36,728 bases of DNA from an uncultured Thermoplasmatales archaeon (lineage in GTDB: Archaea; Thermoplasmatota; E2; DHVEG-1): assembly GCA_964517155.1 (NCBI GenBank), contig CAZFAZ010000085.1, forward strand, positions 1-36,728, read 5' to 3'. The stretch's first letter is position 1; the number at the start of each line of letters is the position of its first letter. Below the pieces are notes generated by a model. The model did not search any database. It saw nothing but the letters and a program-made list of their open reading frames with translations, and was not told where the DNA came from. Below, piece after piece: positions 2,762 to 26,230 of the stretch. The translations under genes and the position numbers were made by a program.

Positions 2762-3169
2762 ATGAATAAAATACTTGTTGGTTTTGACGGCAGTGAAGGT
2801 GCTGAGCAAGCCTTGAATAGAGCGATTATGCTTTTAGAAGAGTATGGAGAGATGATTCTTCTTGCTGTTGTTCCAAGCCCGCATGATAAATCATTTGTGG
2901 ATGATGATGCATATAACATTTTAAAAACAAAAGCCAAAAATCTCATCGATCAGGTAATAATAGATATTGGCGAGCAGGGTTTTGAAATCAAAGGAATGGT
3001 TGAAGAAGGAGACCCTGCCTCAGTTATTATTGATATTGCAAATAGACTTAATGTTGATTTAATTGTTCTTGGCAGTAAAGGTCAAAGCGAGCTTGGGCAG
3101 TATCTTATAGGAAGTGTAGCAAATAAAGTAGTTCAATACGCTGCAAAACCAGTTATGATTGTAAGATAA
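2762..3169 (+). CDS. Universal stress protein (UspA family)
   Basis: KILVGFDGS at the N-terminus; DLIVLGSKG...LIGSVANKVV...PVMIV at the C-terminus; 135 aa. Confidence 0.95.
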   Translation: MNKILVGFDGSEGAEQALNRAIMLLEEYGEMILLAVVPSPHDKSFVDDDAYNILKTKAKNLIDQVIIDIGEQGFEIKGMVEEGDPASVIIDIANRLNVDLIVLGSKGQSELGQYLIGSVANKVVQYAAKPVMIVR

Positions 3170-3199
3170 GCTATTTTTACTAGGAAATAAAAAAACATG

Positions 3200-4459
3200 T
3201 CACATAGATAGGAATATTTTTGAACCAATATCAAACCTGATATATTTATCTTTAAATATTTGTCTACATCTTGTCGAAAAAGAGTTAACTGTATCTCTGA
3301 CTTCACTGGTTCCATTAAAAAGTTGTTCAGGTGTCATATTCTTTGGTTTAAAAACAACTTGGTTTTCGTTGTATTTTGACCAATCCTTTGTCAAGATCCT
3401 TCCCTCTTTATCCAATCTATCAAAAAGAGGAGTCCCAGGATAAGGCGTCAAGATATAGAATTCAACTGTATCAAGCCCAGAGACTTGTACAAAATCCGCT
3501 GTATTTTTGAATGTGCTAACTGTATCTGTATCAAAACCAAATATAAAACTACCAAAAACTGACATGCCATAGTCGTGTATTTTTTTAATCGATTCTATGT
3601 ATTTATTCGCTTGATTTCCTTTACCAATTTTATCAAGGGTCGATTGCGATACAGATTCCAAACCAACAAACCATACTTTGCATCCAGCCTCACTAGCTAG
3701 TTTTAAAAGTTCGTCATCTTTTTCTAAAATGGTTATATTGCCAAAACATTTAAATTTTTTATTTAAATGTTTCATTTCTCTAAATAAATCTTTTGTATGT
3801 TTTAGGTCAATTGTCATTGAAGGGTCAAAAAAATACAAATATTTTGCCTTTGTCGATTTTATTTCTTCCAATACATCTTCGATTCTCCTTGTTCGATGTT
3901 TATTACCATACAGATTATTAGAAATTGCACAAAATTCACACCTATACGGGCAACCTCTAGAAGACTGGACTGCGGCAGTAAATGATAAACGGTCATTAAT
4001 TCTTCTTTTAACTCTATTAATATCATATAAATCGATAGGTTTTTCATTTCTATAAAAAGGCTTTAGATTATTATTTTCTTTATCTTCCAATAACTTTCTC
4101 CAATTAAGCTCTGCTTCGCCAATTAAAACAGCATCAGCATACTGTTTTGCTTCATCTGGCAATGTAGAAGGATGACAACCACCAAGAACAACCGTTTTCT
4201 CTCTTCTATGGAATTCTGTTGCTATTTCGTAAGCTCTAGGAGCATCCGTAGTCATACAAGAGATACCGATAAGATCAGCTTTTGTGTTAAAATCGATAGT
4301 TTGATATCGCTCATCTATAAGTTGGATATTATGAGTTTGTGGTGTCAAATATGCTATTTGTTTTAGTGTTAGAGAAGGATGTACTCTTAATTTGAAAAAA
4401 AAATTTTTATTTGATTTAGTGCTAATTTTAGATTTTGGTTGTATTAAAGTTATGTTCAT
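3200..4459 (-). CDS. B12-binding-domain radical SAM protein
   Basis: Cobalamin-binding-type N-domain (DLIGISCMT, VVLGGCHPS, ADAVLIGEAE), SRGCPYRCEFC (CxxxCxxC), GSFIFGFDTD, LTPYPGTPLF. Confidence 0.9.
   Translation of the reverse strand: MNITLIQPKSKISTKSNKNFFFKLRVHPSLTLKQIAYLTPQTHNIQLIDERYQTIDFNTKADLIGISCMTTDAPRAYEIATEFHRREKTVVLGGCHPSTLPDEAKQYADAVLIGEAELNWRKLLEDKENNNLKPFYRNEKPIDLYDINRVKRRINDRLSFTAAVQSSRGCPYRCEFCAISNNLYGNKHRTRRIEDVLEEIKSTKAKYLYFFDPSMTIDLKHTKDLFREMKHLNKKFKCFGNITILEKDDELLKLASEAGCKVWFVGLESVSQSTLDKIGKGNQANKYIESIKKIHDYGMSVFGSFIFGFDTDTVSTFKNTADFVQVSGLDTVEFYILTPYPGTPLFDRLDKEGRILTKDWSKYNENQVVFKPKNMTPEQLFNGTSEVRDTVNSFSTRCRQIFKDKYIRFDIGSKIFLSM
3399..3436. repeat. 38-bp exact repeat, copy 1 (copy 2 at 4871-4908)
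   Basis: cttccctctttatccaatctatcaaaaagaggagtccc occurs in both B12 radical SAM paralogs. Confidence 0.9.
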
Positions 4460-4608
4460 TTTTATACAGCTTGAATATTGATTTTTAACAATATTTTTAA
4501 ATGTAATTCCACAAGCAGTTATTTTCGAACTCCGGAATTAATTATAACAAGTATTGAAATTTATATATAAAAAGTAGTTGGGATCTTCTATCATGCGTAG
4601 AAATTAGT

Positions 4609-5940
4609 TTATTTTAGCGAATAATAATATTGATACAGTTTTTTCCAGGATTTATAGAATTTTTTTGAATTTAAGTTTTTCAAAAGAATAACAAAAGATG
4701 GATATAATCCGAGTTTTAAGTTTCTAATAAAAATTTTAATCAGGTTTTTATTCGAATAAAACTTCATAGCGATTTTCCAGACACCTATTTCTAATTTTTC
4801 AGGAGACATATTTTTTGGTTGAAAAACTACTTTACCAAAATTATACATGCTTGGATCTTTAATGAGCATTCTTCCCTCTTTATCCAATCTATCAAAAAGA
4901 GGAGTCCCCGGATAAATACCTAAGATATTAAATTCAACTGAATCTATTTCTAAATCATTTATTGCTTTTAGTGTTTCATTAAACACTGATTTTTTATCTG
5001 TATCAAATCCAAACATAAATGATCCAATAGCCGCCATGTGATTTTTATGTATTTTTTCGATGGCTTTTTTGTAATAATCAATTTTATTTGTTTTTTTATC
5101 TATAAAATTAAGTGTTTTTTGTTGAACTGATTCGAAGCCAATAAACCAAGCTATACAGCCTGCTCTGTAAGCCAATTTTAAAAGTTCATCATCTTCACTG
5201 AGTTGTTTTACATTTCCACAACAAAAAAATTTTTTATTTAATTTAATCATCTCTTTAAATAGATTCTTAGTATGATTAACATCATTGGTCATAGAAGAAT
5301 CATCAAAATTTATGAACTTATTCTTTGTCGATTTGATTTCTTTAATAACTGCATCAACAGATCTCAGCCTTTGTTTAGAACCTAAAATGATTGGAGAAAG
5401 ACAAAAAGAACAACAATTAGGGCACCCTCTACTTGTTTCTATTCTTTTAACCATAAAATTTGCAGTTACGTTACTCCTAACTTGCTTAGAGTTATAGATA
5501 TCAACAGGGTTTTTATTTCTATAAAAAGGTTTAATTTCATCATCTTCAAAATCTTTGAGTAGCTTAGGCCAATTTTCATCAGATTCTCCAATAATTACAG
5601 AATCGGCATGTTGTTTTACCTCTTCGGGCATCAAAGTTGGATAAACTCCCCCCATTACAACGGTCTTGCCTTTTTTTTTAAAGATATTTGCTATTTTATA
5701 TGCACGTGATGTAAAAGATGGGGAAAAGGTTATGACAACAATATCACAATCTTGATTAAAATTGATTTTTTTAAATCTCTCATCAATGATCTTAATCGAA
5801 TATTTAACGGGGGTAATCTCTGCCAGATGATATATGGATAAATGAAGGTAGTAAAATTGGTCTGCCTCAATAAAATTCATCGCGTTAGGAGCATCCTTGG
5901 AAAATATTTCGAGTTTAGGCTGGATAAATAAAATTTGCAT
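4609..5940 (-). CDS. B12-binding-domain radical SAM protein, paralog of 3200-4459
   Basis: VVMGGVYPT, ADSVIIGESD, SRGCPNCCSFC, GSFMFGFDTD, YPGTPLF; colinear with the neighbouring gene. Confidence 0.9.
   Translation of the reverse strand: MQILFIQPKLEIFSKDAPNAMNFIEADQFYYLHLSIYHLAEITPVKYSIKIIDERFKKINFNQDCDIVVITFSPSFTSRAYKIANIFKKKGKTVVMGGVYPTLMPEEVKQHADSVIIGESDENWPKLLKDFEDDEIKPFYRNKNPVDIYNSKQVRSNVTANFMVKRIETSRGCPNCCSFCLSPIILGSKQRLRSVDAVIKEIKSTKNKFINFDDSSMTNDVNHTKNLFKEMIKLNKKFFCCGNVKQLSEDDELLKLAYRAGCIAWFIGFESVQQKTLNFIDKKTNKIDYYKKAIEKIHKNHMAAIGSFMFGFDTDKKSVFNETLKAINDLEIDSVEFNILGIYPGTPLFDRLDKEGRMLIKDPSMYNFGKVVFQPKNMSPEKLEIGVWKIAMKFYSNKNLIKIFIRNLKLGLYPSFVILLKNLNSKKFYKSWKKLYQYYYSLK
4871..4908. repeat. 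38-bp exact repeat, copy 2
   Basis: Identical to 3399-3436; after one mismatch both continue ggataa. Confidence 0.9.
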
Positions 5941-5999
5941 CCATTAACAACATCAGATTGAAATATAAAAATTCATCGAGCTTTTAAGGCGATATAATG

Positions 6000-7064
6000 T
6001 TAAGGTAAGTTTTTTATTATAAATGTTCCTAGTTTTTTATTTAAAAAGACAGGGGTTTTTCTAAGGGAATGCCTTACAATGTTATAAATAAAGCTTCGAT
6101 GTTTGTTTATATTTGATAGATTTTGAGATACATATCTAGAATATATTGTATCTTCAGAGCTGAAAGAAGATTTGTAGCTAAACAAACTTTTATTTTCTTT
6201 TGTAGTTAGACCCAAGTCATAATAACAAAAACTCTTTTTATAACACCACAATAGCGAATTCCAATCGAGATAGTTACTAACTTTTAGATCTAGATATCTT
6301 TCATCCAATCCAATATAAGCAGAAAAGACGGTATCTCTAAAAGTTAAATTTAAAGTTGAACCAATGGAAAGCTCATCTAACTTAACAATAAAAATTTTTA
6401 GGTATCCTAATGGACTCATAACTTCCCATATTTTTTTAAAGAAATGATAGTTAGGAACGCAAAACCCCAGTCTTTTGTATGTTAAACAAAATAAATGGTA
6501 AAAATCTGTTAAATCAGATTCTGACTGCGCAGTTTTTATATATAATCCATTTTTTTCTGCTTTTCGTATGTTTGTTCTGTTGGTCTTATCCAGAGAATAC
6601 CACATTTCTTGAGGGTTTTTTATATTAACTCTTTGCAAATTCCACAGATTCTCTTTGATCAAATTAAACTCATTGAAAAAAACTTCTAAATCTAACGGTT
6701 TTTGCCGTATAACAAGATTGCAACGCAGGTCCTTCTTCAACATTGTTGCTGCGTTTAAAAGAGGTGTTATGCTCCTGCGTTCTCCTATAAAACCCCCATA
6801 GCTACTTAGTGGTAATGAGCTAAGTACGTTATTAAAAATCGTTTTAATATGAAATAATGGCAAAACTCCTTCAATTTTATCTTCTTCGTTTTTAGCCAGC
6901 AGATAATAGGGCTTAAGATTTAGACTCTCTTGGATTATTTTTTTCCATTCTATCGAATGATATATTGTGGAATCAGGATGTTTAAAAACAAATTTATTAT
7001 ATTTTTCTTGATCTTCTCCAGATAACAATTCAATTTTTAGTCCTTCATTGGTTCTAAGTTGCAT
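6000..7064 (-). CDS. FemAB-like / double-GNAT-fold transferase
   Basis: HPDSTIYHSIEW, GVLPL, SLPLSSYGG, RTNIRKAEKNGL, YDLGLT, LFSYKSSF: the pattern of FemAB-related GNAT proteins; 354 aa. Confidence 0.8.
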   Translation of the reverse strand: MQLRTNEGLKIELLSGEDQEKYNKFVFKHPDSTIYHSIEWKKIIQESLNLKPYYLLAKNEEDKIEGVLPLFHIKTIFNNVLSSLPLSSYGGFIGERRSITPLLNAATMLKKDLRCNLVIRQKPLDLEVFFNEFNLIKENLWNLQRVNIKNPQEMWYSLDKTNRTNIRKAEKNGLYIKTAQSESDLTDFYHLFCLTYKRLGFCVPNYHFFKKIWEVMSPLGYLKIFIVKLDELSIGSTLNLTFRDTVFSAYIGLDERYLDLKVSNYLDWNSLLWCYKKSFCYYDLGLTTKENKSLFSYKSSFSSEDTIYSRYVSQNLSNINKHRSFIYNIVRHSLRKTPVFLNKKLGTFIIKNLP

Positions 7065-7213
7065 TTCATCATAAAATAAAACTTATTGCAACTATAATAA
7101 GTTTTGTTTATAAAGAAGATTGTTAATTTTTCTGAAAGATACAAATAAATGTAATTACTAAAAAACAAATTATATATACTTATAATAAAATAGTTAAATA
7201 TTGAGATTGCTAA
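7065..7213. promoter_or_regulatory. Probable divergent promoter region of the radical SAM cluster
   Basis: 149-bp very AT-rich spacer between head-to-head genes, containing TATA-like TTATATATA and TTTATAAA. Confidence 0.5.
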
Positions 7214-8467
7214 ATGAAAAAAGTATATATTTATAATGAGCCGCAAGCCTGTAGGCGAAGGGCATTGGATGCTGAAAAGATATACAGATATTTTTTAAAA
7301 AACAATTTTGAAATGAAGGATAGTCCAAAAGATGCGGATTTAATAGTATACATTACATGTGCAGCTGTAAGCCAAACTGCAAACATTTGTCTTGATAAAA
7401 TTAAATATTTTCAAAAATACAAAGCACAACTTTTGATAATGGGTTGTTTACCTTCTGTAGAAAAAGAGAAACTCTCAAGTATGTTCAATGGAAAGAAAAT
7501 AGACACTAAAGAAATTTCGAAAATTGATTCACTATTTCCAAATAATAGATACAAATTCAGTGAACTAGATGACGCCAACATACTATACTTCAATTTAGAC
7601 AAAACAACAATTTCTGGAACAATAAAAATAATTTTGCACAGAATTTATCCATTGGAAGAATTGTATAAATATCTAAAGAATCATATTTTAAAAAATTTAC
7701 ATGACAAAAAATCTTTTATGTATATGGCTTCTAATAAAGACCAATTCCACATAAGAATTTCTTGGGGATGCCCTAACAATTGTTCCTATTGCACTATAAA
7801 AACATCTACTGGAAAATTCAAAAGTAAACCTTTAGAAAAATGTGTAGAAGAACTCAAAATAGGTTTAAAAAAGGGCTACAAGGATATTATTATAACTGCA
7901 GATAACACCGGTGCTTATGGTATAGATAAAAATAGTTGTTTACCCGAGCTACTTAAAAAATTTTTACAAATAAATGGCCAATACAATTTATTTATCCGTG
8001 GGCTAGATCCTAGATGGGTAGTAAAATACCATATGGACCTAATGGATATATTAAAGCAAGGAAAAATTGTTGGATTAGAGATACCTATTGAATCAGGAAA
8101 TGAAAGAATATTGCGACTAATGCGACGATTTTCTGAAACAAACAGTATGAAAAGGATACTCAAAAGAATAAGATCTAATTTCCCAGAGTTGTATTTATAT
8201 ACTCACATTATGGCAGGATTTCCAACAGAGACTACAGAAGAATTCAAACAAACACTGGAATTTGTGTTAGATGCAGGCTTTGATTCTGGTCAGATATTTC
8301 CCTTTTCAATAAGAGATATAACAGATGCTGCAAAAATAAAACATAGGATATCACAAGAAGAAATTTCAAAAAGAATGGAAATTTCTAAAAAGTTTCTAAA
8401 GAAAAACGGGTACAAAGTTATCGATATTAAAAAAATTAATGCTTTGTTATTCAGTAAAAAGAGATGA
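7214..8467 (+). CDS. Methylthiotransferase-like (MiaB/RimO/MtaB-like) radical SAM protein without TRAM domain
   Basis: UPF0004-type N-domain with three Cys (QACRR, ITCA, MGCLP), GCPNNCSYC, IPIESGNERILRLMRR, HIMAGFPTET. The protein ends shortly after FPFSxR. Confidence 0.82.
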   Translation: MKKVYIYNEPQACRRRALDAEKIYRYFLKNNFEMKDSPKDADLIVYITCAAVSQTANICLDKIKYFQKYKAQLLIMGCLPSVEKEKLSSMFNGKKIDTKEISKIDSLFPNNRYKFSELDDANILYFNLDKTTISGTIKIILHRIYPLEELYKYLKNHILKNLHDKKSFMYMASNKDQFHIRISWGCPNNCSYCTIKTSTGKFKSKPLEKCVEELKIGLKKGYKDIIITADNTGAYGIDKNSCLPELLKKFLQINGQYNLFIRGLDPRWVVKYHMDLMDILKQGKIVGLEIPIESGNERILRLMRRFSETNSMKRILKRIRSNFPELYLYTHIMAGFPTETTEEFKQTLEFVLDAGFDSGQIFPFSIRDITDAAKIKHRISQEEISKRMEISKKFLKKNGYKVIDIKKINALLFSKKR

Positions 8468-8506
8468 TTTAGCAAAAAGATTAATAGCTTTACAGATATA
8501 AATAAA

Positions 8507-9769
8507 ATGATGGCAATGACGCCAAAAAAAATATTCATACATAATATGGGATGCGAAAGAAGAGGACTAGATGCACAAAGGACGTATTGTTATTTTAAAA
8601 GTAATGGTTATGAAATTGTTTATGATCCAAAAAAGGCAGACTATATAATATTTTTTACTTGTGCTTTTGTTGATAGTGTTGCTGAGAGTTGTTTTTCAGT
8701 GATTAAAAAATTTTCTACATATAGTGCTGAGTTAATTGTTGCAGGTTGCTTGCCGGAAATAGAAAAAGAGAAAATTTCGAAATATTTTAACGGGAAACAA
8801 ATAGCTACAAAAGATATTTCAGAGATAGACAAATTTTTCAAAAAAAATAACATTCCTTTTACGTCTATTGAGGATCAAAATTTCATCTATTGTAACAAGA
8901 ATATTAGAGAGATAAATAGTTTGTTTTATACAATATTTGGGAGGAGTCAATTTTTTGACAAGATTAATAAAAAAGTCAGATTAAATCTTCTAAAATACAT
9001 TTTTGGTGAATACAGTCTAGCATATATTTACTCAAATGAACACCAGTATCATCTCAGAATAGGTTGGGGATGTACAGATAACTGTTCATATTGTGCAATT
9101 AAAAAAGCAATAGGGTCGTTAAGAAGTAAACCAATTGATATTTGTTTGAAAGAATTTAAAAAAGGATTAAATGAGGGAATTAAAAAATTTGTTTTAGCCG
9201 GGGATGATGTAGGAGCATATGGTATAGATATAGGTACTAGTTTTCCGTCATTTTTAAATAAAATTACAAATATTGAAGGCGATTATGAAATATTTATCCA
9301 CGATTTTAATCCCAAATGGTTAGTTAAATATGATAGCAAGCTAATTAATATCTTTAAAAAAGGTAAGATATCCATTATTGAAATTCCAATGCAATCAGCG
9401 AGTCCAAGGATTTTAAAATTAATGAACCGTTTTCATAATATAAATGATATTAGTAGACTAATTAGCAGGTTAAAAGAAACTGTTCCAGAAACAAAAATAT
9501 TTACTGATTATATAATTGGGTTTCCTAGTGAAACTTGGGATGAAATGGAGCAAACATTAAATTTTATAGTAGAAAATAACTTTAGTTCTGGTTTTGTTAT
9601 GCCTTTTTCTCAAAGAAGTGGAACTAAATCAGAAGAAATTGAGCCTAAAATATCTCAAATAGAAAAACAAGAGCGCATTAACTATTCTAAAGATTTTTTC
9701 AAAAAACATGGATATAAAGTATATTCACCTCATCCATATTTTTATATATTTGATAAAAAGAGCGCGTAA
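8507..9769 (+). CDS. Methylthiotransferase-like radical SAM protein without TRAM domain, paralog of 7214-8467
   Basis: MGCERR, FTCAF, AGCLP, GCTDNCSYC, IPMQSASPRILKLMNR, DYIIGFPSET, PFSQRSGT. Confidence 0.85.
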   Translation: MMAMTPKKIFIHNMGCERRGLDAQRTYCYFKSNGYEIVYDPKKADYIIFFTCAFVDSVAESCFSVIKKFSTYSAELIVAGCLPEIEKEKISKYFNGKQIATKDISEIDKFFKKNNIPFTSIEDQNFIYCNKNIREINSLFYTIFGRSQFFDKINKKVRLNLLKYIFGEYSLAYIYSNEHQYHLRIGWGCTDNCSYCAIKKAIGSLRSKPIDICLKEFKKGLNEGIKKFVLAGDDVGAYGIDIGTSFPSFLNKITNIEGDYEIFIHDFNPKWLVKYDSKLINIFKKGKISIIEIPMQSASPRILKLMNRFHNINDISRLISRLKETVPETKIFTDYIIGFPSETWDEMEQTLNFIVENNFSSGFVMPFSQRSGTKSEEIEPKISQIEKQERINYSKDFFKKHGYKVYSPHPYFYIFDKKSA

Positions 9770-9842
9770 ATTTAATAAAATTTATATATTACCTGCTATA
9801 ATATATTTAATAATTAGCAAATATTAGTTATGTTAAGGGACG

Positions 9843-11179
9843 ATGAACAAAAAACTATTGTTAGTTTGTCTAATTATCACAATAATCGTTTCAACTAATG
9901 CTGCATCAATAGCAAAAGAAAAAACGAACTTAATTAAAACTAATGTCACAAAATATTGTGAAGAAAAAACATGTCAAGGATATACAATTTTTTCAGATAT
10001 AGGATATAAACCTCTATTAATCGACAGGGGTGAAAATCACATACATGAATGGAATTTATCATGTGATGTTAAAGTAATGCCAGGTGGCATTGCCTTAGGC
10101 CCTGCTGTTTCAAGAGAAGAATACATCTTTGGTCGAGAATATTGTTATGTCGTACAAGAGGTATGGAACGGTGCAGTTGAGCTGAATTTTTCAAGTTGGA
10201 ATAATACCGATTCTGGAAAAATGGTAGCAAGGCAACATCATGATTTTCAAAGAGAAGGAAATCCCGTAGGATATTGTGCACCGGGTCAAGAATTTATTGA
10301 GAATGGTACTACATTGGTTCTCGCACATCAAAATATAAATGTTGATAAAATAAGCAATAAAGAACTCGTTGATGATGTGATATATGAAATTGATTTCAAT
10401 GGAAATTTAACTGGCTTTGAATGACATGCATCTGATCATTTTGACGAGTTTGGATTCAGTAATGCAACCAAAATTGGAATTTATTTATTTCCGGGCCATC
10501 ATCTTTTTATATCTATCCCTCAACTAAGAAATTGGTTTTTTATTAAATACGATTGGTTGCACTTGAATGCCATGTCAAAACTTGGTAAAAACAAATGGTA
10601 TAATGCAGGTGATGAAAGATTTAACCCAGAAAACATTATGATATGCTCACGTCATGCAAATATTATTGCGATAATCTGTAGAGAAACAGGAGAGATAGTA
10701 TGGAAAATCGGTCCTGATTACTCACAAAAAACAGAAGAAGGTAAAAAAATTGGACAGATTGTTGGACCACATCATGCTCATATGATACCTGAGGGATTAC
10801 CTGGAGCAGGAAATATTTTAGTATTTGATAATGGGGGATTTTCTGGATATGGGATACTGGGAATGCCAAATAAATTCAGGTGTTATTCACGCGTTATAGA
10901 GATTAACCCATATACATTAGATATATAGTTTGGGAATATAAAAAAGAAGTGAGCTCTGAAGGGGATCCTAAATTTTTTAGTGCGTTTATTAGTTCAGCTC
11001 AACGTCTTCCAAATGGCAATACACTAATAACTGAAGGAAAGAACAACAGGATATTTGAGGTTACAGTTGATGGAGAGGTTGTTTGGGAATATTTTCATGA
11101 TGATATTATATATAGGGCATATCATGTTCCACCAGAATGGATACCAAACAATCCATCAGGTTATGAAAAGTGGGAATAG
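9843..11179 (+). pseudogene. Secreted arylsulfotransferase (ASST-like beta-propeller), disrupted
   Basis: Signal peptide; ARQHHDFQREGNPVGY, DWLHLNAMS, HHAH, ILVFDNGG, SSAQRLPNGNTLITEG. In-frame TGA at 10422-10424 (FE*HASDHF, Trp expected) and a 2-bp extra TA near 10921-10927 (gat ata [ta] gtt tgg gaa tat). Repairing both joins three ORF-track fragments. Confidence 0.85.
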
Positions 11180-11230
11180 CACAATCTTTGTCTATATACC
11201 CTGAAGTACCCAGTATCATCTTAAAAAAGA

Positions 11231-11818
11231 TTATTTTCCTCTATTTTGATGAGCGCGAATGCTAGGTCTTACTTTTTCAGCACCACGGCCTTTTTTATGT
11301 AATCCTCGTCCTCTTTGTCCAGCACTTGTTTTACCGCGCATTACTCGTCTTTTGTTTGATACATCTGTAATCCAGTTTATTTTTGGATCTTTCATAATAG
11401 ATGGATGAACAGGATCTACTAGTATTACTTCATAAAAATAGTTTTTACCATCATCTCCAACCCAATAGCTGTTAAGTACTTCCATGTTTGGATAGCGTTT
11501 TGCGGTTCTTTCTTCTGCAAGTCTTTGCGTGTTTTTACCCATTGTAATTTTAGAAATACCTTTTGCAGAGGGTTTTCTTCCTTTTCTAATAGTCGGCTTT
11601 CTAAGCCCTCCACGTCGTACGTGAGCACGTACAACTGTATAACCTATTTTTGCTTTGTATCCAAGACTTCGGGCTCTATCGATGCGCGTTGGTTTTTGAA
11701 TTCTTGAAAAATTTTCTTCTTTTCTCCACTGTATAAGTCTTTGTTGTTGTGGAGATTGAAAGGATACATCTGGTTTTTTCCATTGATCCCCGACATAGTC
11801 GTACATACTTTTAACCAT
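11231..11818 (-). CDS. rpl15e: 50S ribosomal protein L15e
   Basis: PTRIDRARSLGYKAK, AEER..KRYPNMEVLNSYWVG, EVILVDP, RGKTSAG. Confidence 0.98.
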   Translation of the reverse strand: MVKSMYDYVGDQWKKPDVSFQSPQQQRLIQWRKEENFSRIQKPTRIDRARSLGYKAKIGYTVVRAHVRRGGLRKPTIRKGRKPSAKGISKITMGKNTQRLAEERTAKRYPNMEVLNSYWVGDDGKNYFYEVILVDPVHPSIMKDPKINWITDVSNKRRVMRGKTSAGQRGRGLHKKGRGAEKVRPSIRAHQNRGK

Positions 11819-15580: not shown

Positions 15581-16528
15581 CTAGTTTTTGTAAACTCCGA
15601 ATAACTTTAATATTAACGTCGCCAGATTTATTATAAATGGTATAAGAGGAATGATGGATTTTGATAGTATAAAAAGGAAGAGGAAAATTGCTTGTTCCCA
15701 TAAAAAAACGCTTATACTTATCAATAAACCTATCTGAGCAGGTTTAGTGTATATCTTTGAAAAAAAGAAAAACGGAGAACAAATAAGTATAGATATTGTT
15801 ATAAAGGAATCAATTCCAACAAAAAAAATCGATAGAAATAAAGATAAGAAAAAAAGGATTATTCCAATGTTGACAGAGTTATTATAGCCTAATATCACAC
15901 ATGAGCTCTTCAGACCATATTTTTTTTCCTCATCTACGTCAATAATAATTACGTCAAATAAAAGATGGACGCTTATAATAACTAACCCAAAAATAAAGCC
16001 ATAGACAAAAAACATATTTGATATAAAACCGTTAGTAAGCCATCCTAAAAAGAAAGGTAGTGTAGAAAATTCCAATGCTAACATAACTAAATCAAATGGT
16101 GCTCTTCCTTTGCATCTTAAAGGCGGTACAGAATAAAAAATGATGCTAAAGATTATCAACAAACCCATAAAAAATGTATAAATATTTATTAAAAAAAGAA
16201 TAAAAAGACTGATAAAAATTAAGACAAAAGTCACTAAAGATAATTCTCTTATTGAAATGTAATCCCAAAAATCGATTAATCCAATCTTTTTTTTACCAGC
16301 GGCTTGATCAAGATTTTTATCGAAAATATGATTGATATACGAGCCTGAAGACATCAATCCTGAAAGAGATAAAAGCCCAATTATTGTTTGAAAGAGAGGT
16401 ATTTTTTCTACAGATAACCATTCTCCTAGTAAAAAGAATGCAACAGTTATTATCAACAGCTCAAATCTAGCTGCTTTTAAAAAATAGTAAAGTTTCATAC
16501 CGAATTTATTGACTTTTGTTTTTTCCAT
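15581..16528 (-). CDS. UbiA-family prenyltransferase (integral membrane)
   Basis: NHIFDKNLD (NxxxDxxxD), YSVPPLRCK, second acidic motif DVDEEKKYG; many hydrophobic helices. Confidence 0.85.
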   Translation of the reverse strand: MEKTKVNKFGMKLYYFLKAARFELLIITVAFFLLGEWLSVEKIPLFQTIIGLLSLSGLMSSGSYINHIFDKNLDQAAGKKKIGLIDFWDYISIRELSLVTFVLIFISLFILFLINIYTFFMGLLIIFSIIFYSVPPLRCKGRAPFDLVMLALEFSTLPFFLGWLTNGFISNMFFVYGFIFGLVIISVHLLFDVIIIDVDEEKKYGLKSSCVILGYNNSVNIGIILFFLSLFLSIFFVGIDSFITISILICSPFFFFSKIYTKPAQIGLLISISVFLWEQAIFLFLFILSKSIIPLIPFIINLATLILKLFGVYKN

Positions 16529-21047: not shown

Positions 21048-22052
21048 CTAAAACTTACCTGTTGATTTTGCATACAAACGTCGAAATCGTGCATCTGCAT
21101 ATTTTTTCTTGCTGCGGATTACATCGTAAATAGGCATATTGTGAATTGTCTCACGTAGATCTGCTTCTGAAGTGTGTAAGTATCTTTCTGTCGAGCTGAG
21201 TTTAGCATGACCAAGTAGTTGCTGAACAATAGTTATTCTTGCTCCTGATTTGAGAAGATTAGTTGCATAGAAATGTCGAAAGCTATGTGGATGGATCCAA
21301 GGAACTCCTGCTTTCTTTGCAATATCTTTGATTCTTTTTCTAATATAAACTGGTTTAATAGGTGCATTTTCTGTTGTAAAAAGAGTATCTCCAATTGGGT
21401 AACGCCATTGCTGAATATAGTTTTTCAAACTTGGGTAGTTTAAACCGTTTAAAACCTTTCTTTCAACAGGTACAATCCTGTCTTTGCCACCTTTTCCTTT
21501 CTTGACCATTATTTCAGCGTTTTTCCAGTCGATATCGTCAAGTTTTAGATTGCATAGTTCTGCACATCGAAGCCCTGTTTTACAAAAGAAAACAATAAGC
21601 ATTCTATCTCTTCGATCCGTGTGATTTCTTTCAGATACTACTTCAAGCATTGCTTGAATATCTGCTATACTTGGAACTTTTATTGGTGAGAGATGTTCTT
21701 TGAATTTGTCAAACTTTTTTTCTATTTCTCGGAATTTCAACCATGAGTTTAGAGCTTTAACGTAATTATTTAGTCCTGCATTTGCAGATCCACTTTGAAT
21801 TTTATCATAAAAAAAGGTGTGAACCTGGTTTTCATCTAAATTTAGAAGATCTATTCCATTTCTTTCAAGATATTTTAATTTCTTAATTCTGCCAGGAACT
21901 GTACTTCTAGGATGCAGGCGTTGAACAACAATACAATGTTTGATAAAACTATTCCATATTTCTTCTGTTACTATTTCCTGCTCCTTTTCTGACTTTTCTG
22001 AAAAAGATTTAATACTACTTTTTTCTTCATTTTGCTCGGGGTTTGATATCAT
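21048..22052 (-). CDS. Tyrosine recombinase/integrase
   Basis: Complete catalytic set: TGLRCAEL (R), KGKGGKDR (K), HPHSFRH (HxxR), LLGH (H), TERYLH (Y). GGAG RBS upstream. Confidence 0.95.
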   Translation of the reverse strand: MISNPEQNEEKSSIKSFSEKSEKEQEIVTEEIWNSFIKHCIVVQRLHPRSTVPGRIKKLKYLERNGIDLLNLDENQVHTFFYDKIQSGSANAGLNNYVKALNSWLKFREIEKKFDKFKEHLSPIKVPSIADIQAMLEVVSERNHTDRRDRMLIVFFCKTGLRCAELCNLKLDDIDWKNAEIMVKKGKGGKDRIVPVERKVLNGLNYPSLKNYIQQWRYPIGDTLFTTENAPIKPVYIRKRIKDIAKKAGVPWIHPHSFRHFYATNLLKSGARITIVQQLLGHAKLSSTERYLHTSEADLRETIHNMPIYDVIRSKKKYADARFRRLYAKSTGKF

Positions 22053-22067
22053 GTGTATCAGACTCCA

Positions 22068-22097
22068 GCCCCTTGAGTGTTAGCGCACTCTTGGGGC
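22068..22097. promoter_or_regulatory. GC-rich stem-loop in the integrase 5' region
   Basis: gcccc-tt-gagtg-ttagcg-cactc-tt-ggggc, immediately upstream of the integrase RBS. Confidence 0.7.
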
Positions 22098-22148
22098 AAT
22101 TTTTACTAATTTTTGGTCATATTTTTATAGGTTATACTAACAAAAATC

Positions 22149-22168
22149 ATAAGGAGTTCTCTCCTTAT
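22149..22168. repeat. Perfect 8-bp inverted repeat (possible operator or terminator)
   Basis: ataaggag-ttct-ctccttat, between the NTase-fusion gene end and the integrase. Confidence 0.6.
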
Positions 22169-22202
22169 ATACTCCTGTAAGAGGTAATTGAAACTATTAC
22201 AT

Positions 22203-24092
22203 TCACATATTATTAATAAAATCGGGTATCTCTGTAAAATTAATTATATTAATTCTATTCCTAAGAATATATTTTTCGATATGATGTGAAGATAAAACAA
22301 TGCAAGATTTGATTTTCCAAGTTTTTTCGTTTTTTATATTATAATATTTCTTTATTTGACCTGAATGTTTTCTAATAAAATCTTCTTTGCGTTTTAATAT
22401 AGGTATATAACCTTTTTCTTTTTCAATGAATTCTGTTAGATTATAACATATTTCACGTGTATTATATTTCTCTTCAATATCTTTAGCTTCCCAGAGTACC
22501 ATAGTTTTTTTATCTTTATGAATTGAAATTGCATCTATTTCTCCGGGACATACTTCTTCAATATCTTTTAAACATTTTGTATTTTTCCCGTTTTCTGACT
22601 CAATGTTTCTTTCAGAAAAATCCGAATTTTCTTTTATTATTGAAAATACTTCTTTCTCAAAATCTTTTGATAATTGAGTCTTTCTTTTATTCAAAGCTTT
22701 TGTGACATCTTTTGGTAAAAAATCTTCTGGGATAGGACTTCGTCCTTCTAATATGAGTTTAAAGATTTTATCAATTGTAAAAATCAAGGTTTCCGATCCA
22801 AAATAGATTGTATTATCAATATTAATTAATGGTTTTACTGTAAGTTTATTTTTTCTGGCTTCTTTTTCCCAAGGTCTAATGATCTTACTTTCTTTTATAT
22901 CTATATTTAAAGTATAAAAATCTATAATTTTTTCAATTGTTTTCTTTTCGATGCTAGTTAATTGATTAACAAAATTTATCAATTCTTCTTTTTTTATTTC
23001 AATAATTCCAAACATATTAGGTTCTTTGTATGCAAATATTTCTGGAACAATACGGAGTTCGATTAAGTCAAATCCTAATTTTTTCTTAAGATTTTTACTT
23101 ATTTCATTTAAATTATTTTCTTCACATATCAATTGTCTTGACTTTTCTATGGTTTTTTTAATAATATCGTCAGTTGGAGAATACTGAATGCCATCCTCTA
23201 TAAGCGCTTCTCTTTTATCGTCTTTTAATAAATATTTTGATAGATCTAAATCTTTTAATCCTTCAATATAATCTTCTTTATATTTTTCAATTGGATTTTC
23301 ATCTATAATTATGTTAAAAATATGCCCCTTTTCAAAATCAATTTCAACTTTTACATCAAAAAAATCAGACAAATGGAAAATATAATCACTAATAGTTGCA
23401 ATGGTTAACATTCTCATTACAACTGGACAGATATTTTGCCAAGTATCTGTATTCATTCTTTCCTTTCCCGATATATTAATAAAAGTAGCAAGTTCAAGTA
23501 AGTATCTACAAGAAGGAGCATATAAATTAAGTTCATCTAATCTTTCTCCAATCCAAGTTATCCAAACATCTTCTCCGTTAGTTTTAATCTGATTAATCAT
23601 TTCCTCTTTTATTTCATTCCAATTTAAACCTTTTTTGATCAACTCTATACAATCTTCAAGATCTCCAGGTCTTTCTGTCATACTTTTAAACAAGAAAATA
23701 TCTTCATTCGAACATTTATTAACAGAAATATTTTTTAGACTAATTATTTCGTTAGATCTTTTAATCATATCATTTGATAAAGCAAATTTTTTACATACTT
23801 TTTTCAAGAAAGCATCTATCCTATAGTCCTCTCGAACCATGATTTTATTTAGTTCCATCTTCTTGTAAAGACCAGAAGGATTTTCCTCTTTGAAATTTAT
23901 AGTGACTAAAGATTTATTGAAAAAATTAAATTCATCTTTATCTTTAAGAATTAAATCAATATCTTTTGTAGCAGGTTTCAATCCTTCAAATAAAAGTGCT
24001 GCACCCCCGATTATATATACCTTAACAGTATCTTTTAAATTCTCATCAATTTCATGAAATAATTCTTCTATTTGTTTAAATTTTGATATCAT
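22203..24092 (-). CDS. DUF6036/AbiEii-like nucleotidyltransferase fused to a region ending in a PD-(D/E)XK nuclease-like domain
   Basis: N-terminus: IIGGAAL...ATKDIDL, RIDAF, DIFLFKSMTERPGDLED. C-terminus: DFEKEV...PGEIDAISI...VLWEAKD. Confidence 0.7.
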   Translation of the reverse strand: MISKFKQIEELFHEIDENLKDTVKVYIIGGAALLFEGLKPATKDIDLILKDKDEFNFFNKSLVTINFKEENPSGLYKKMELNKIMVREDYRIDAFLKKVCKKFALSNDMIKRSNEIISLKNISVNKCSNEDIFLFKSMTERPGDLEDCIELIKKGLNWNEIKEEMINQIKTNGEDVWITWIGERLDELNLYAPSCRYLLELATFINISGKERMNTDTWQNICPVVMRMLTIATISDYIFHLSDFFDVKVEIDFEKGHIFNIIIDENPIEKYKEDYIEGLKDLDLSKYLLKDDKREALIEDGIQYSPTDDIIKKTIEKSRQLICEENNLNEISKNLKKKLGFDLIELRIVPEIFAYKEPNMFGIIEIKKEELINFVNQLTSIEKKTIEKIIDFYTLNIDIKESKIIRPWEKEARKNKLTVKPLINIDNTIYFGSETLIFTIDKIFKLILEGRSPIPEDFLPKDVTKALNKRKTQLSKDFEKEVFSIIKENSDFSERNIESENGKNTKCLKDIEEVCPGEIDAISIHKDKKTMVLWEAKDIEEKYNTREICYNLTEFIEKEKGYIPILKRKEDFIRKHSGQIKKYYNIKNEKTWKIKSCIVLSSHHIEKYILRNRINIINFTEIPDFINNM

Positions 24093-24945
24093 ACAATTCT
24101 GCCTTCTCTTTTATCTCATCCAAGGTAGGATATCTCTCTATTTTATTCCCTTTAAGAATATTATCAAAGTTCTTCAGTATTGGGCTTTTTATTTTTATAA
24201 ATTCACATCTAAACTTTATATAAAAAAGCGCTACATATGTTAAATATCTATAATCTTTTTCTTTGTTAGTAATATAAATTGAATGAAGCAATATTTCTTC
24301 TTTTGATAAGTTTTTATTAGGTAAATAGTAAAAATTTGTTGGAAGTAATATCTTTATTTTATATTTTTCATATACTGAGAATGCAGTAGGAGTCGCTTTT
24401 AATTCAGAATTATTTGAGAATAAAATTTCATCCTCATTTTTATGGTATATTATAGAATTTACAGGAATTCTATTATCAATTGCCTCTTCGAACTTTTTAT
24501 TTTCCTGCAAATAATTCTTCAGATTTGGCCATATTTTTTCATTAATTGTATATTTATGATTTTTATTTTTTTCAATTGCACTTATATTGCGCCCTATCTT
24601 AATTTTTTTATAAATTGTACTCTTCTTTAGATTTGTCTCCTGCATTATTTCATTAATCGATTTTGGTTTTAAAATTGATATTAGGATCCTCAATCCTGAA
24701 TCTGAAAAAAGTTTAATTAGACTTGGGTATCTCGAAATAAGATTAAGAATAAGTGCCGAATTAATTGATTTCTCTGGCTCTAACCTACCTCTATTTAAAT
24801 GTAAAAAACCATGTTCCAATAGGTTTTGTTTTGCCCTGTAAATCTGACTATTACTTCTATGAATATTTTGGGCAATATTTTCTATCTTATTATTTCCATA
24901 TGAAACTTGTTCCAATACTTTTAATTCGGTTTGAGATAATTGCAT
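24076..24945 (-). CDS. Winged-HTH regulator / putative antitoxin partner of the nucleotidyltransferase
   Basis: Two HTH-like segments (IENIAQNIHRSNSQIYR; SINEIMQETNLKKSTIYK), then PTAFSVYEKYKI and YPTLDEIKEKAELY. Overlaps the next gene by 17 nt. ATG at 24945 preferred over TTG at 25026. Confidence 0.7.
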   Translation of the reverse strand: MQLSQTELKVLEQVSYGNNKIENIAQNIHRSNSQIYRAKQNLLEHGFLHLNRGRLEPEKSINSALILNLISRYPSLIKLFSDSGLRILISILKPKSINEIMQETNLKKSTIYKKIKIGRNISAIEKNKNHKYTINEKIWPNLKNYLQENKKFEEAIDNRIPVNSIIYHKNEDEILFSNNSELKATPTAFSVYEKYKIKILLPTNFYYLPNKNLSKEEILLHSIYITNKEKDYRYLTYVALFYIKFRCEFIKIKSPILKNFDNILKGNKIERYPTLDEIKEKAELYDIKI

Positions 24946-25058
24946 AATATTATATTTATATGCCATTACTATATATACTTTTCGCATTTTAGTGGAAAAA
25001 TTAATTATTTTTAATTTATTAACCAAATTCCGAATCTAAATTCTTTATTAGGCGTCTA

Positions 25059-25118
25059 CATACAAAAGAAAAATGGATGTTCTGAATTCATGTTTTCTCA
25101 TGTAAAACAGGTCTAACC
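25059..25118 (+). repeat. ~60-bp direct repeat, copy 1 (att-like)
   Basis: Gapless 47/60 match to 26363-26422, with a 24/25 core tttctcatgtaaaacag(g/a)tctaacc. Confidence 0.85.
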
Positions 25119-25151
25119 TGCCATGTCCGTTATATTAAGATCTTGCATAGC

Positions 25152-25179
25152 AGGTTATTTGAACAGAAGAAAATAACCT
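25152..25179. repeat. 9-bp inverted repeat
   Basis: aggttattt-N10-aaataacct, downstream of the Fic gene. Confidence 0.5.
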
Positions 25180-25276
25180 AAATCTTGTATTTTTAGTGTA
25201 CAATACCTTACAATTTTTACATTTGCATTTTAGTATTTTTTTAACAAAATAGCGATTTTGTAAGGGCAATTTAATC

Positions 25277-26230
25277 CTAATAATCCTCTATAATTTTATG
25301 AAGTTGTTCATATGTTTTTTTGGTTTGCTCTAACATAAATTGGTAATAATTCTTTTTGGTTTGCCGTTCATGACCTTTTACTATTGCATTAAAATATGCT
25401 TTTGAATTATCAGCATATATAATTATTGGAAAATATCCTTTATCCATTAATATCTTATTCATGATTAAACGTCCTGTTCTACCATTTCCATCTATAAAAG
25501 GATGAATATATTCATATCTTAAATGAAAGTCAAAAGCAAGTTTAAATGGATACTCCTTCTTTTTTGTTTCTTTATATTTATTTAGTAAATCTTCTAAAGC
25601 CCATTCAACTTGATCTGGGGGAATAGTGAGTTGATTATTTACAATATTCTCAACTTTTTTGAATCCTTTAGGATAAGGCTCACCATTTGACATAGTTAAA
25701 TCTTTTGTTAGAATATAATATAGTCTTTTAACTGATGCAATGTTAAATTTGAAGCCTTTTTGAATATAATTTAAAGCATCAATTGAGTTAAAAACTTCTT
25801 TAATCTCATTTCTATTTTTATATTTACTAATACCTTTTTCAATAATTTTTTTTACTTCTTTGGCCGGAATTTTTGAACCCTCAATATTGTTTGAATTAAA
25901 AATAAATTCTTTAGCAAATTCTATCAATATTTGTTCTCTAATTTCTTTAATTTCAAAAAGATTATCAATTTGTATTGATTTCATCTCAACTTCATTAAGA
26001 AGATTCGGGTTATGAACTAAATCTAATTTACTAAAAAGGTTCTTTCTAATTTCAAATTCTCTCTTAGTAATAAGATCAAAATTATTTTTTAAAAATTCTT
26101 TTTTATTTATTGTAGTAACATTTTTTCCGATATGCTCTCTTACTCTAAAAACCTGACCCATCAGGGATATCTTTTTAACAAATAAGGCATATTCTGTTCT
26201 ATCTTTTTTTTGAACCTCAATATATGACAT
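25277..26230 (-). CDS. Fic-domain protein (class II, self-inhibited type)
   Basis: HPFIDGNGRTGR catalytic motif; upstream SNNIEG matches the (S/T)xxxE(G/N) inhibitory motif. Confidence 0.93.
   Translation of the reverse strand: MSYIEVQKKDRTEYALFVKKISLMGQVFRVREHIGKNVTTINKKEFLKNNFDLITKREFEIRKNLFSKLDLVHNPNLLNEVEMKSIQIDNLFEIKEIREQILIEFAKEFIFNSNNIEGSKIPAKEVKKIIEKGISKYKNRNEIKEVFNSIDALNYIQKGFKFNIASVKRLYYILTKDLTMSNGEPYPKGFKKVENIVNNQLTIPPDQVEWALEDLLNKYKETKKKEYPFKLAFDFHLRYEYIHPFIDGNGRTGRLIMNKILMDKGYFPIIIYADNSKAYFNAIVKGHERQTKKNYYQFMLEQTKKTYEQLHKIIEDY

Follow-up and report, generated by a model that had tools for sequence, protein, structure and literature searches.

A mobile cassette of cobalamin radical SAM, FemAB-like and TRAM-less UPF0004 genes in an uncultured Thermoplasmatales archaeon

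An insertion at the usp/rpl15e junction

We analysed a 36,728-nucleotide stretch of DNA (the window; contig CAZFAZ010000085.1 of NCBI GenBank assembly GCA_964517155.1) from an uncultured Thermoplasmatales archaeon, in which a block of accessory genes separates the convergent genes usp and rpl15e. It corresponds to contig C85 of a genome (G000) of 1.59 Mb and 90.8% completeness, and the nearest relatives include metagenome-assembled genomes of Thermoplasmatales/Thermoplasmatota such as SG8-52-3, which belong to DHVEG-1/MBG-D. The original prediction, made from the letters of the window, described six accessory genes in two arms around a 149-bp spacer. We located the divergent spacer and found all four CxxxCxxC motifs of the radical S-adenosylmethionine (SAM) enzymes; five open reading frames (ORFs) are intact, whereas the sixth, the arylsulfate sulfotransferase (ASST) gene, has an in-frame stop and a frameshift. 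The features are as follows.

usp, 2762-3169: left flank
Whole insertion, 3170-11230: between convergent usp and rpl15e
B12a, 3200-4459, minus strand: cobalamin radical SAM enzyme of HpnP-like architecture, 419 aa; Pfam B12-binding, Radical_SAM, weak DUF4070
B12b, 4609-5940, minus strand: second cobalamin radical SAM enzyme of the B12a subfamily, 443 aa, 47% identical to B12a
FemAB-like, 6000-7064, minus strand: FemAB/Acetyltransf_6 GNAT, 354 aa; nearest NCBIfam model TIGR03019
Divergent spacer, 7065-7213: 149 bp
MTa, 7214-8467, plus strand: TRAM-less UPF0004 radical SAM enzyme, 417 aa; Pfam UPF0004 and Radical_SAM
MTb, 8507-9769, plus strand: second TRAM-less UPF0004 radical SAM enzyme, 420 aa, 42% identical to MTa
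ASST pseudogene, 9843-11179, plus strand: Pfam PF05935; N-terminus signal-peptide-like by eye
rpl15e, 11231-11818: right flank

The block is an 8-kb insertion at the usp/rpl15e junction. None of the 29 relatives with a usp match carries the cassette there: the ends of usp and rpl15e lie 7-48 bp apart in 19 of them, both same-genus genomes included, and 468 bp apart in one more, while in the other nine rpl15e was not matched within the up to 1.5 kb examined. The block is not flanked by a long repeat, direct or inverted, among those listed, which comprised 20 of 43 direct families and 25 of 106 inverted pairs. Promoter and terminator scans returned chance levels (44 vs 49.0 and 2 vs 2.5, respectively), and no short ORF that starts with ATG and is at least 10 aa long is present in the spacer.

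The accessory genes had been called visibly AT-richer than cysS, paaK and ahcY. This difference is modest. Positions 3200-9769 have 29.0% GC and the whole genome 31.8%, which puts the block near the 5th percentile of 1079 windows; two of the genes used for comparison, paaK and ahcY, have unusually high GC (91st and 95th percentile). GC at third codon positions in the five intact genes falls between the 48th and 91st percentile among 946 genes. Mild AT-richness with normal third positions gives no sign of a distant donor, and a foreign origin argued from AT-richness was rejected.

Enzymes of the cassette

MTa and MTb both carry a UPF0004 domain with the three auxiliary-cluster cysteines (C13, C49 and C78) and a radical SAM core with its CxxxCxxC motif, and all six cluster cysteines are retained in 118 of 121 aligned sequences. 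No TRAM domain was found in either protein or among the 120 homologues listed (of 167), every one of which has PF04055 and PF00919 only. The alignment column of MiaB Q215/RimO Q192, whose Gln we take to be an active-site residue, holds Asp or Glu in 110 of 121 sequences and Gln in none, and Arg16 is near-invariant (117/121). Against TIGR00089 the two proteins score 219.5 and 234.9 bits, below the 251-bit cut-off. The missing TRAM domain, the missing Gln and the sub-threshold scores together indicate that these proteins are built like methylthiotransferases without being members of that family. Methylthio transfer is plausible at most, and the earlier description of the pair as enzymes inserting -SCH3 went further than the absent TRAM domain and the Gln-free column allow.

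The AlphaFold model of MTa (pLDDT, the predicted local distance difference test score, 93.4) matches the folds of MtaB, RimO and MiaB at a template modelling score of ~0.7, and the best sequence match in the Protein Data Bank (PDB) is RimO. It differs from them by a helical insert of ~45 aa (helices at about residues 133-173) and by a C-terminal helix and two-strand beta-hairpin standing where TRAM would be. A role of the insert as an amphipathic membrane anchor was not supported for MTa and only weakly supported for MTb.

This likeness in fold raises the question of whether MTa and MTb are extra tRNA or ribosomal methylthiotransferases with unrelated cargo as neighbours. Some homologues are publicly labelled 'MiaB' or 'CDKAL1', labels that are probably wrong, and in Bacillus subtilis chimeras substrate choice was not set by TRAM (available text of PMC2952846). 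However, methylthiotransferases are defined as tripartite proteins with TRAM (available text of PMC2952846 and PMC10702137), and the accessible part of PMC10702137 names only tRNA or ribosomal protein S12 as substrates of characterised members and has all three MiaB domains contacting tRNA. The genome also has a canonical TRAM-bearing MtaB-like gene (C33:4468-5718) that groups apart from the TRAM-less proteins with an SH-like (Shimodaira-Hasegawa-like) support of 100, the measure used for all our FastTree trees. The MT family is multi-copy and patchy, occurring in 23 of 151 genomes of the class, among them 20 of the family's 67 (with no more than 11 candidates scored for any of the 151 genomes). 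Additionally, at 16 of 43 genome loci the MT genes have a B12 gene no more than 8 kb away, where doubled copy counts predict ~7%. This comparison is rough, in that the label used for the observed count is wider than the E-value cut behind the expectation and related genomes are not independent. That MTa and MTb are such extra tRNA or ribosomal enzymes is highly improbable.

In the B12 pair, the Pfam B12-binding domain scores 45.9 bits in B12a, above the 32.1-bit cut-off, and 27.8 bits in B12b, below it; the DUF4070 match is weak and below cut-off in both. The AlphaFold 2 model of B12a has a mean pLDDT of 88.7. The combination of B12-binding, radical SAM and DUF4070 domains is that of HpnP and of uncharacterised HpnP-like clades (PMC10697835, in the portion available). 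This architecture is one reason to consider that the cassette modifies isoprenoid membrane lipids, B12a and B12b methylating the chains or backbone, MTa and MTb adding sulfur, and the GNAT and sulfotransferase altering the polar head. Known archaeal B12 radical SAM enzymes act on glycerol dialkyl glycerol tetraether (GDGT) lipids (bioRxiv 10.1101/2025.10.20.683597, accessible text), nearly every genome of the family has the B12 subfamily (65 of 67; 107 of 151 in the class), as expected of a membrane function, and UbiA, DUF3419, PEMT and CoA-ligase genes occur as neighbours. On the other hand, B12a and B12b are shorter than the lengths used in searches for Cgm/Ted homologues, squalene-hopene cyclase (PF13243) was not found in the 90.8% complete genome, and the FemAB-like gene has sugar loci as its contexts. 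We regard a membrane-lipid target as unlikely, if still worth weighing.

The FemAB-like protein matches TIGR03019 over its full length at 132.7 bits (cut-off 260.35) and the FemX model NF047883 at 40 bits (cut-off 500). From these matches it is likely an aminoacyl or acyl transferase; a FemABX peptidyl transferase was rejected, given the score far below the FemX cut-off and the archaeal host. In the 151-genome sample the gene occurs in four genomes, every one an MT carrier. Of six genomic matches, four lie beside MT genes, a fifth lies with a VimE-like deacetylase and a carbamoyltransferase at contig ends, and the sixth lies in a polysaccharide-type flippase/glycosyltransferase locus without radical SAM genes, as read from weak BLAST matches and by eye. 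The linkage to a deacetylase and amino-sugar genes was seen for the C28 paralogue described below and at loci L039 and L264, and is absent from the cassette of the window. In Porphyromonas, VimA sets the amino acid put on an amino sugar after a proposed deacetylation by VimE (PMC7468200, in its accessible part), and we regard VimA/VimE as the closest functional precedent by analogy; the VimE-like deacetylase in the sister islands scores below the model cut-off.

The ASST gene is interrupted by an in-frame TGA at 10422-10424, and its frame changes near 10925. Across this gene, contigs assembled from two runs at ~100x are identical to the window, although the runs may be its source and drop rare variants. 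An assembly error is not supported by these two deep, possibly same-sample contig sets. Sulfation by this gene, as first proposed, is not shown for the host with the gene broken, and the sulfation step has probably been lost from the cassette of the window. All five intact proteins score below the NCBIfam cut-offs for known enzymes.

Recurrence and gene partners

We found the core of B12a/B12b, FemAB-like and MTa genes at four other loci, which come from uncultured sediment archaea. The order B12a, B12b and FemAB-like on one strand, diverging from MTa, is kept in L152, L153 and L154, of which L153 and L154 are near-identical and hence not independent. L154 has all six genes in order with an intact ASST, and between MTa and MTb it adds genes for a methyltransferase, a phosphodiesterase-like protein, a glycosyltransferase, a 3'-phosphoadenosine-5'-phosphosulfate (PAPS)-dependent sulfotransferase and a further B12 enzyme. 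In L152, an intact ASST follows MTa; the intact homologues in L152 and L154 are 453-454 aa long. L037, from another genus (G139), keeps this core but has two additional genes separating FemAB from MTa, one CoA-ligase-like and one for a PAPS sulfotransferase, and its B12 arm is oriented away from MTa.

These genes also form position-specific clades in FastTree phylogenies: B12a (6 rows, support 96), B12b (5 rows, 100), MTa (5 rows, 98) and MTb (3 rows, 99), with members from the window, the four core loci and L181 and with partial proteins under 380 aa excluded. That each radical SAM protein has its own position-specific clade indicates that both pairs are old, distinct paralogues, presumably with separate roles. 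Scattered homologues would have spoken against a coherent pathway; instead, conserved co-localisation and the lack of any NCBIfam assignment support the predicted undescribed tailoring pathway. No description of the cassette, or of a characterised TRAM-less UPF0004 enzyme, was found in a literature search that left out supplements and most subscription journals. Arragain et al., in 2010, are said to have recognised a TRAM-less 'MTL1' group, which the literature search did not confirm and which may overlap this clade.

In L152, a tRNA-Arg(CCT) gene (L152:3919-3994) directly adjoins the cassette, a different site from that in the window. The housekeeping proteins of this relative are 89-92% identical to those of the window, whereas its cassette proteins are just 40-60% identical. 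A different site and low cassette identity in so close a relative fit a unit that moves or is differentially kept. In L037 the cassette continues (L037:5797-9720) with an IS200-type transposase, a divergent MT gene and a split MT gene, which indicates ongoing turnover. The cassette is real and mobile; its enzymes belong to known superfamilies, and one clade among them has diverged distinctly.

Such mobility would also suit a cassette that tailors a diffusible secondary metabolite, for instance an aminoacylated, methylated and sulfated glycoside or acyl compound. The patchy MT distribution and the tRNA-Arg beside the L152 cassette point this way, as do CoA-ligase, methyltransferase and ATP-grasp partners (14, 20 and 4 of 66 loci, see below) and the L154 glycosyltransferase, which scores best to the macrolide-type MGT model, though below its cut-off. 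Against it, the five cassette loci have no scaffold-forming enzyme, dedicated exporter or regulator in common, and we hold a diffusible product to be decidedly unlikely.

The window's cluster had been called an orphan, which does not hold: the genome has two further clusters with both enzyme types, on C28+C10 and on C67, and a B12 pair on C33. C28:10407-22030 and C10:1-7482 (L003 and L001), whose contigs overlap by 98 bp, make up a larger sister island. It carries genes for a GT4 glycosyltransferase, a radical SAM enzyme, a GNAT, an epimerase, DegT, a FemAB-like protein, a VimE-like deacetylase, a second GNAT, a carbamoyltransferase, a methyltransferase, two MT-like proteins, a sulfotransferase and three B12 radical SAM enzymes, with matching pieces in genomes G138 (L264 and L069) and G147 (L039). 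Relative to the cassette, the sister islands on C28+C10 and at L039 add the DegT aminotransferase, epimerase, VimE-like deacetylase and carbamoyltransferase. At C33:1-1801 with C57/C58 (L004-L006), the B12 pair is followed by CoA-ligase-like, sulfotransferase, methyltransferase and UbiA genes; C57 and C58, which share 89% identity across 7.4 kb and each overlap the end of C33 by 99 bp, represent a duplication or a second strain. C67 (L002) also has a gyrase A gene (C67:23148-26918) that encodes 1256 aa, compared with ~816 aa in relatives, and contains an insert resembling an intein by eye.

Short ORFs lie beside a YcaO gene, a transglutaminase-like gene and a TRAM-less MT gene at L002:7020-7079 (19 aa) and L054:3549-3629 (26 aa). 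They share a similar M-x-S-[FY]-G-K-[WF]-L stretch, and at these paralogous loci the TRAM-less clade may act on peptides. By extension, the cassette enzymes could modify a peptide or protein encoded elsewhere, as a ribosomally synthesised and post-translationally modified peptide (RiPP)-like or other post-translational system, and RimO, the best PDB sequence match, is a protein-modifying relative. However, no YcaO gene occurs in the cassette of the window or in L037, L152, L153 and L154. As the prediction had noted, no precursor peptide is visible: a scan for short ORFs led by a ribosome-binding site, which was not exhaustive in that its pattern missed the L054 peptide, found none inside the cassette and none common to those four loci. 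A peptide or protein target for the cassette itself is quite improbable.

Across 66 de-duplicated loci of at least 9 kb, at least one listed partner type was present at 49. Partners were B12 (30), methyltransferase (20), GNAT (15), a second MT (15), sulfotransferase (14), CoA-ligase-like (14), sugar-pathway (5), UbiA (5), ATP-grasp (4), YcaO (3) and DUF3419 (3) genes. C25 peptidase neighbours at nine first-set loci were not used, the genome having seven BLAST matches to that family. Bacteria and Bathyarchaeia have TRAM-less relatives at a greater distance (27-36%). Of 18 such non-Thermoplasmata loci scanned in part, drawn from 101 of 209 selected proteins, 7 carry glycosyltransferase, flippase or nucleotide-sugar genes. 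Riflebacteria-type loci (L127, L130, L134 and L138) carry, in tandem, TRAM-less MT, MT and B12 genes. Their MT proteins form a clade apart from the Thermoplasmatota ones, so TRAM loss or the MT-B12 pairing may have arisen more than once.

Elsewhere in the window, a UbiA prenyltransferase gene lies at 15581-16528, ~4 kb from the cassette. Positions 21048-26230 are AT-rich (~25% GC over most of their length) and carry phage integrase, DUF6036 nucleotidyltransferase-like, TrmB-type helix-turn-helix and Fic genes, which looks like a second mobile island.

Possible function and comparison with known systems

By analogy to VimA/VimE and from the sugar-pathway neighbours, we suggest that the inserted, conserved cassette tailors an amino-sugar-bearing cell-surface glycoconjugate, either a glycolipid head group or a protein N-glycan, a reading that we hold to be the best of those considered and evenly poised between right and wrong. 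The FemAB-like GNAT would attach an amino acid or an acyl group to the amine of a sugar, the role proposed for VimA. B12a and B12b would C-methylate different unactivated carbons using methylcobalamin and the 5'-deoxyadenosyl radical, and MTa and MTb could use the auxiliary cluster to insert a methylthio group or sulfur in another form, or to carry out a different radical reaction, on a non-RNA substrate. Sulfation would be the last step, PAPS-dependent in G139, by a secreted ASST in L152, and by both in L154, and partner swapping among genomes would diversify surface chemistry. The host genome has AglB/STT3, a flippase and adenosine 5'-phosphosulfate (APS) kinase. Where the prediction had left the target as a lipid, glycan or small molecule, the neighbourhoods favour one that bears sugar, without settling the choice.

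Several observations weigh against a surface glycoconjugate. The cassette of the window has no glycosyltransferase or sugar-pathway gene, and the 5 of 66 loci with sugar-pathway labels, although an undercount with labels taken from first-set clusters only, are few. Glycosyltransferases are likewise scarce in the genome, with one GT2 and seven GT4 for the two families searched. Members of the enzyme families also stand beside lipid-type genes (UbiA at 5 and DUF3419 at 3 of the 66 loci, and PEMT) and, at L002 and L054, beside YcaO and a short peptide, which indicates that these families are not glycan-specific. Moreover, HpnP, a characterised relative with this B12 architecture, methylates a lipid (PMC10697835, available portion), and the scores to TIGR03019 and the VimE model lie below cut-off.

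A broader proposal is that TRAM-less UPF0004 proteins are a separate, large clade acting beyond RNA and the ribosome, and that together with B12 methylases and FemAB-like aminoacyltransferases they produce surface glycoconjugates bearing methylthio, C-methyl, aminoacyl and sulfate groups, the cassettes being swapped among sediment Thermoplasmatota as a combinatorial kit for surface diversification. We consider this possible but hold it with more doubt than confidence. If true, it would be the first methylthiotransferase chemistry on a sugar or lipid. The intact natural version in L154 and the four position-specific lineages offer a concrete test of what the TRAM-less and HpnP-like B12 clades do. 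Knowing the function of the cassette would also reveal the means by which uncultured archaea of sediments alter their cell surfaces, and might lead to new biomarkers that contain sulfur.

Among known systems, the Wbp/Vim linking-sugar pathway and the PEP-CTERM-associated TIGR03019 proteins share the GNAT/FemAB-like transferase, and the sister islands add the VimE-like deacetylase, DegT aminotransferase and an oxidoreductase. The cassette differs in its archaeal host, and the available text on that pathway mentions no radical SAM enzymes, while the cassette of the window is without deacetylase and sugar genes and its scores fall below cut-off. Arylsulfate sulfotransferases (PF05935) are the Pfam match of both the ASST fragment and its intact orthologues, the copy in the window being broken.

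B12a and B12b match the three domains of HpnP, with DUF4070 below cut-off in both and B12-binding below it in B12b; they are shorter, paired and accompanied by fixed partners. A hopanoid-making host would be expected of HpnP, yet the host genome yielded no match to the cyclase. The archaeal GDGT-modifying enzymes GrsA/B, Gmm, Cgm/Pgm and Ted belong to the same class of cobalamin-dependent radical SAM enzymes, according to the accessible text of the bioRxiv paper. The comparison of Cgm and Ted with B12a and B12b covered length (more than 495-500 aa in homologue searches vs 419-443 aa), and FemAB, MT-like and sulfotransferase partners are not mentioned in that text. Finally, MiaB, MtaB, e-MtaB and RimO (TIGR00089; PDB 4JC0 and 7MJV-7MJZ) share with MTa and MTb the UPF0004 and radical SAM domains, the six cluster cysteines and the fold. 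MTa and MTb differ in lacking TRAM and in having the helical insert, the C-terminal hairpin, the Asp/Glu column and Arg16, and their clade, below NCBIfam cut-offs, is patchy, multi-copy and housed inside tailoring clusters.

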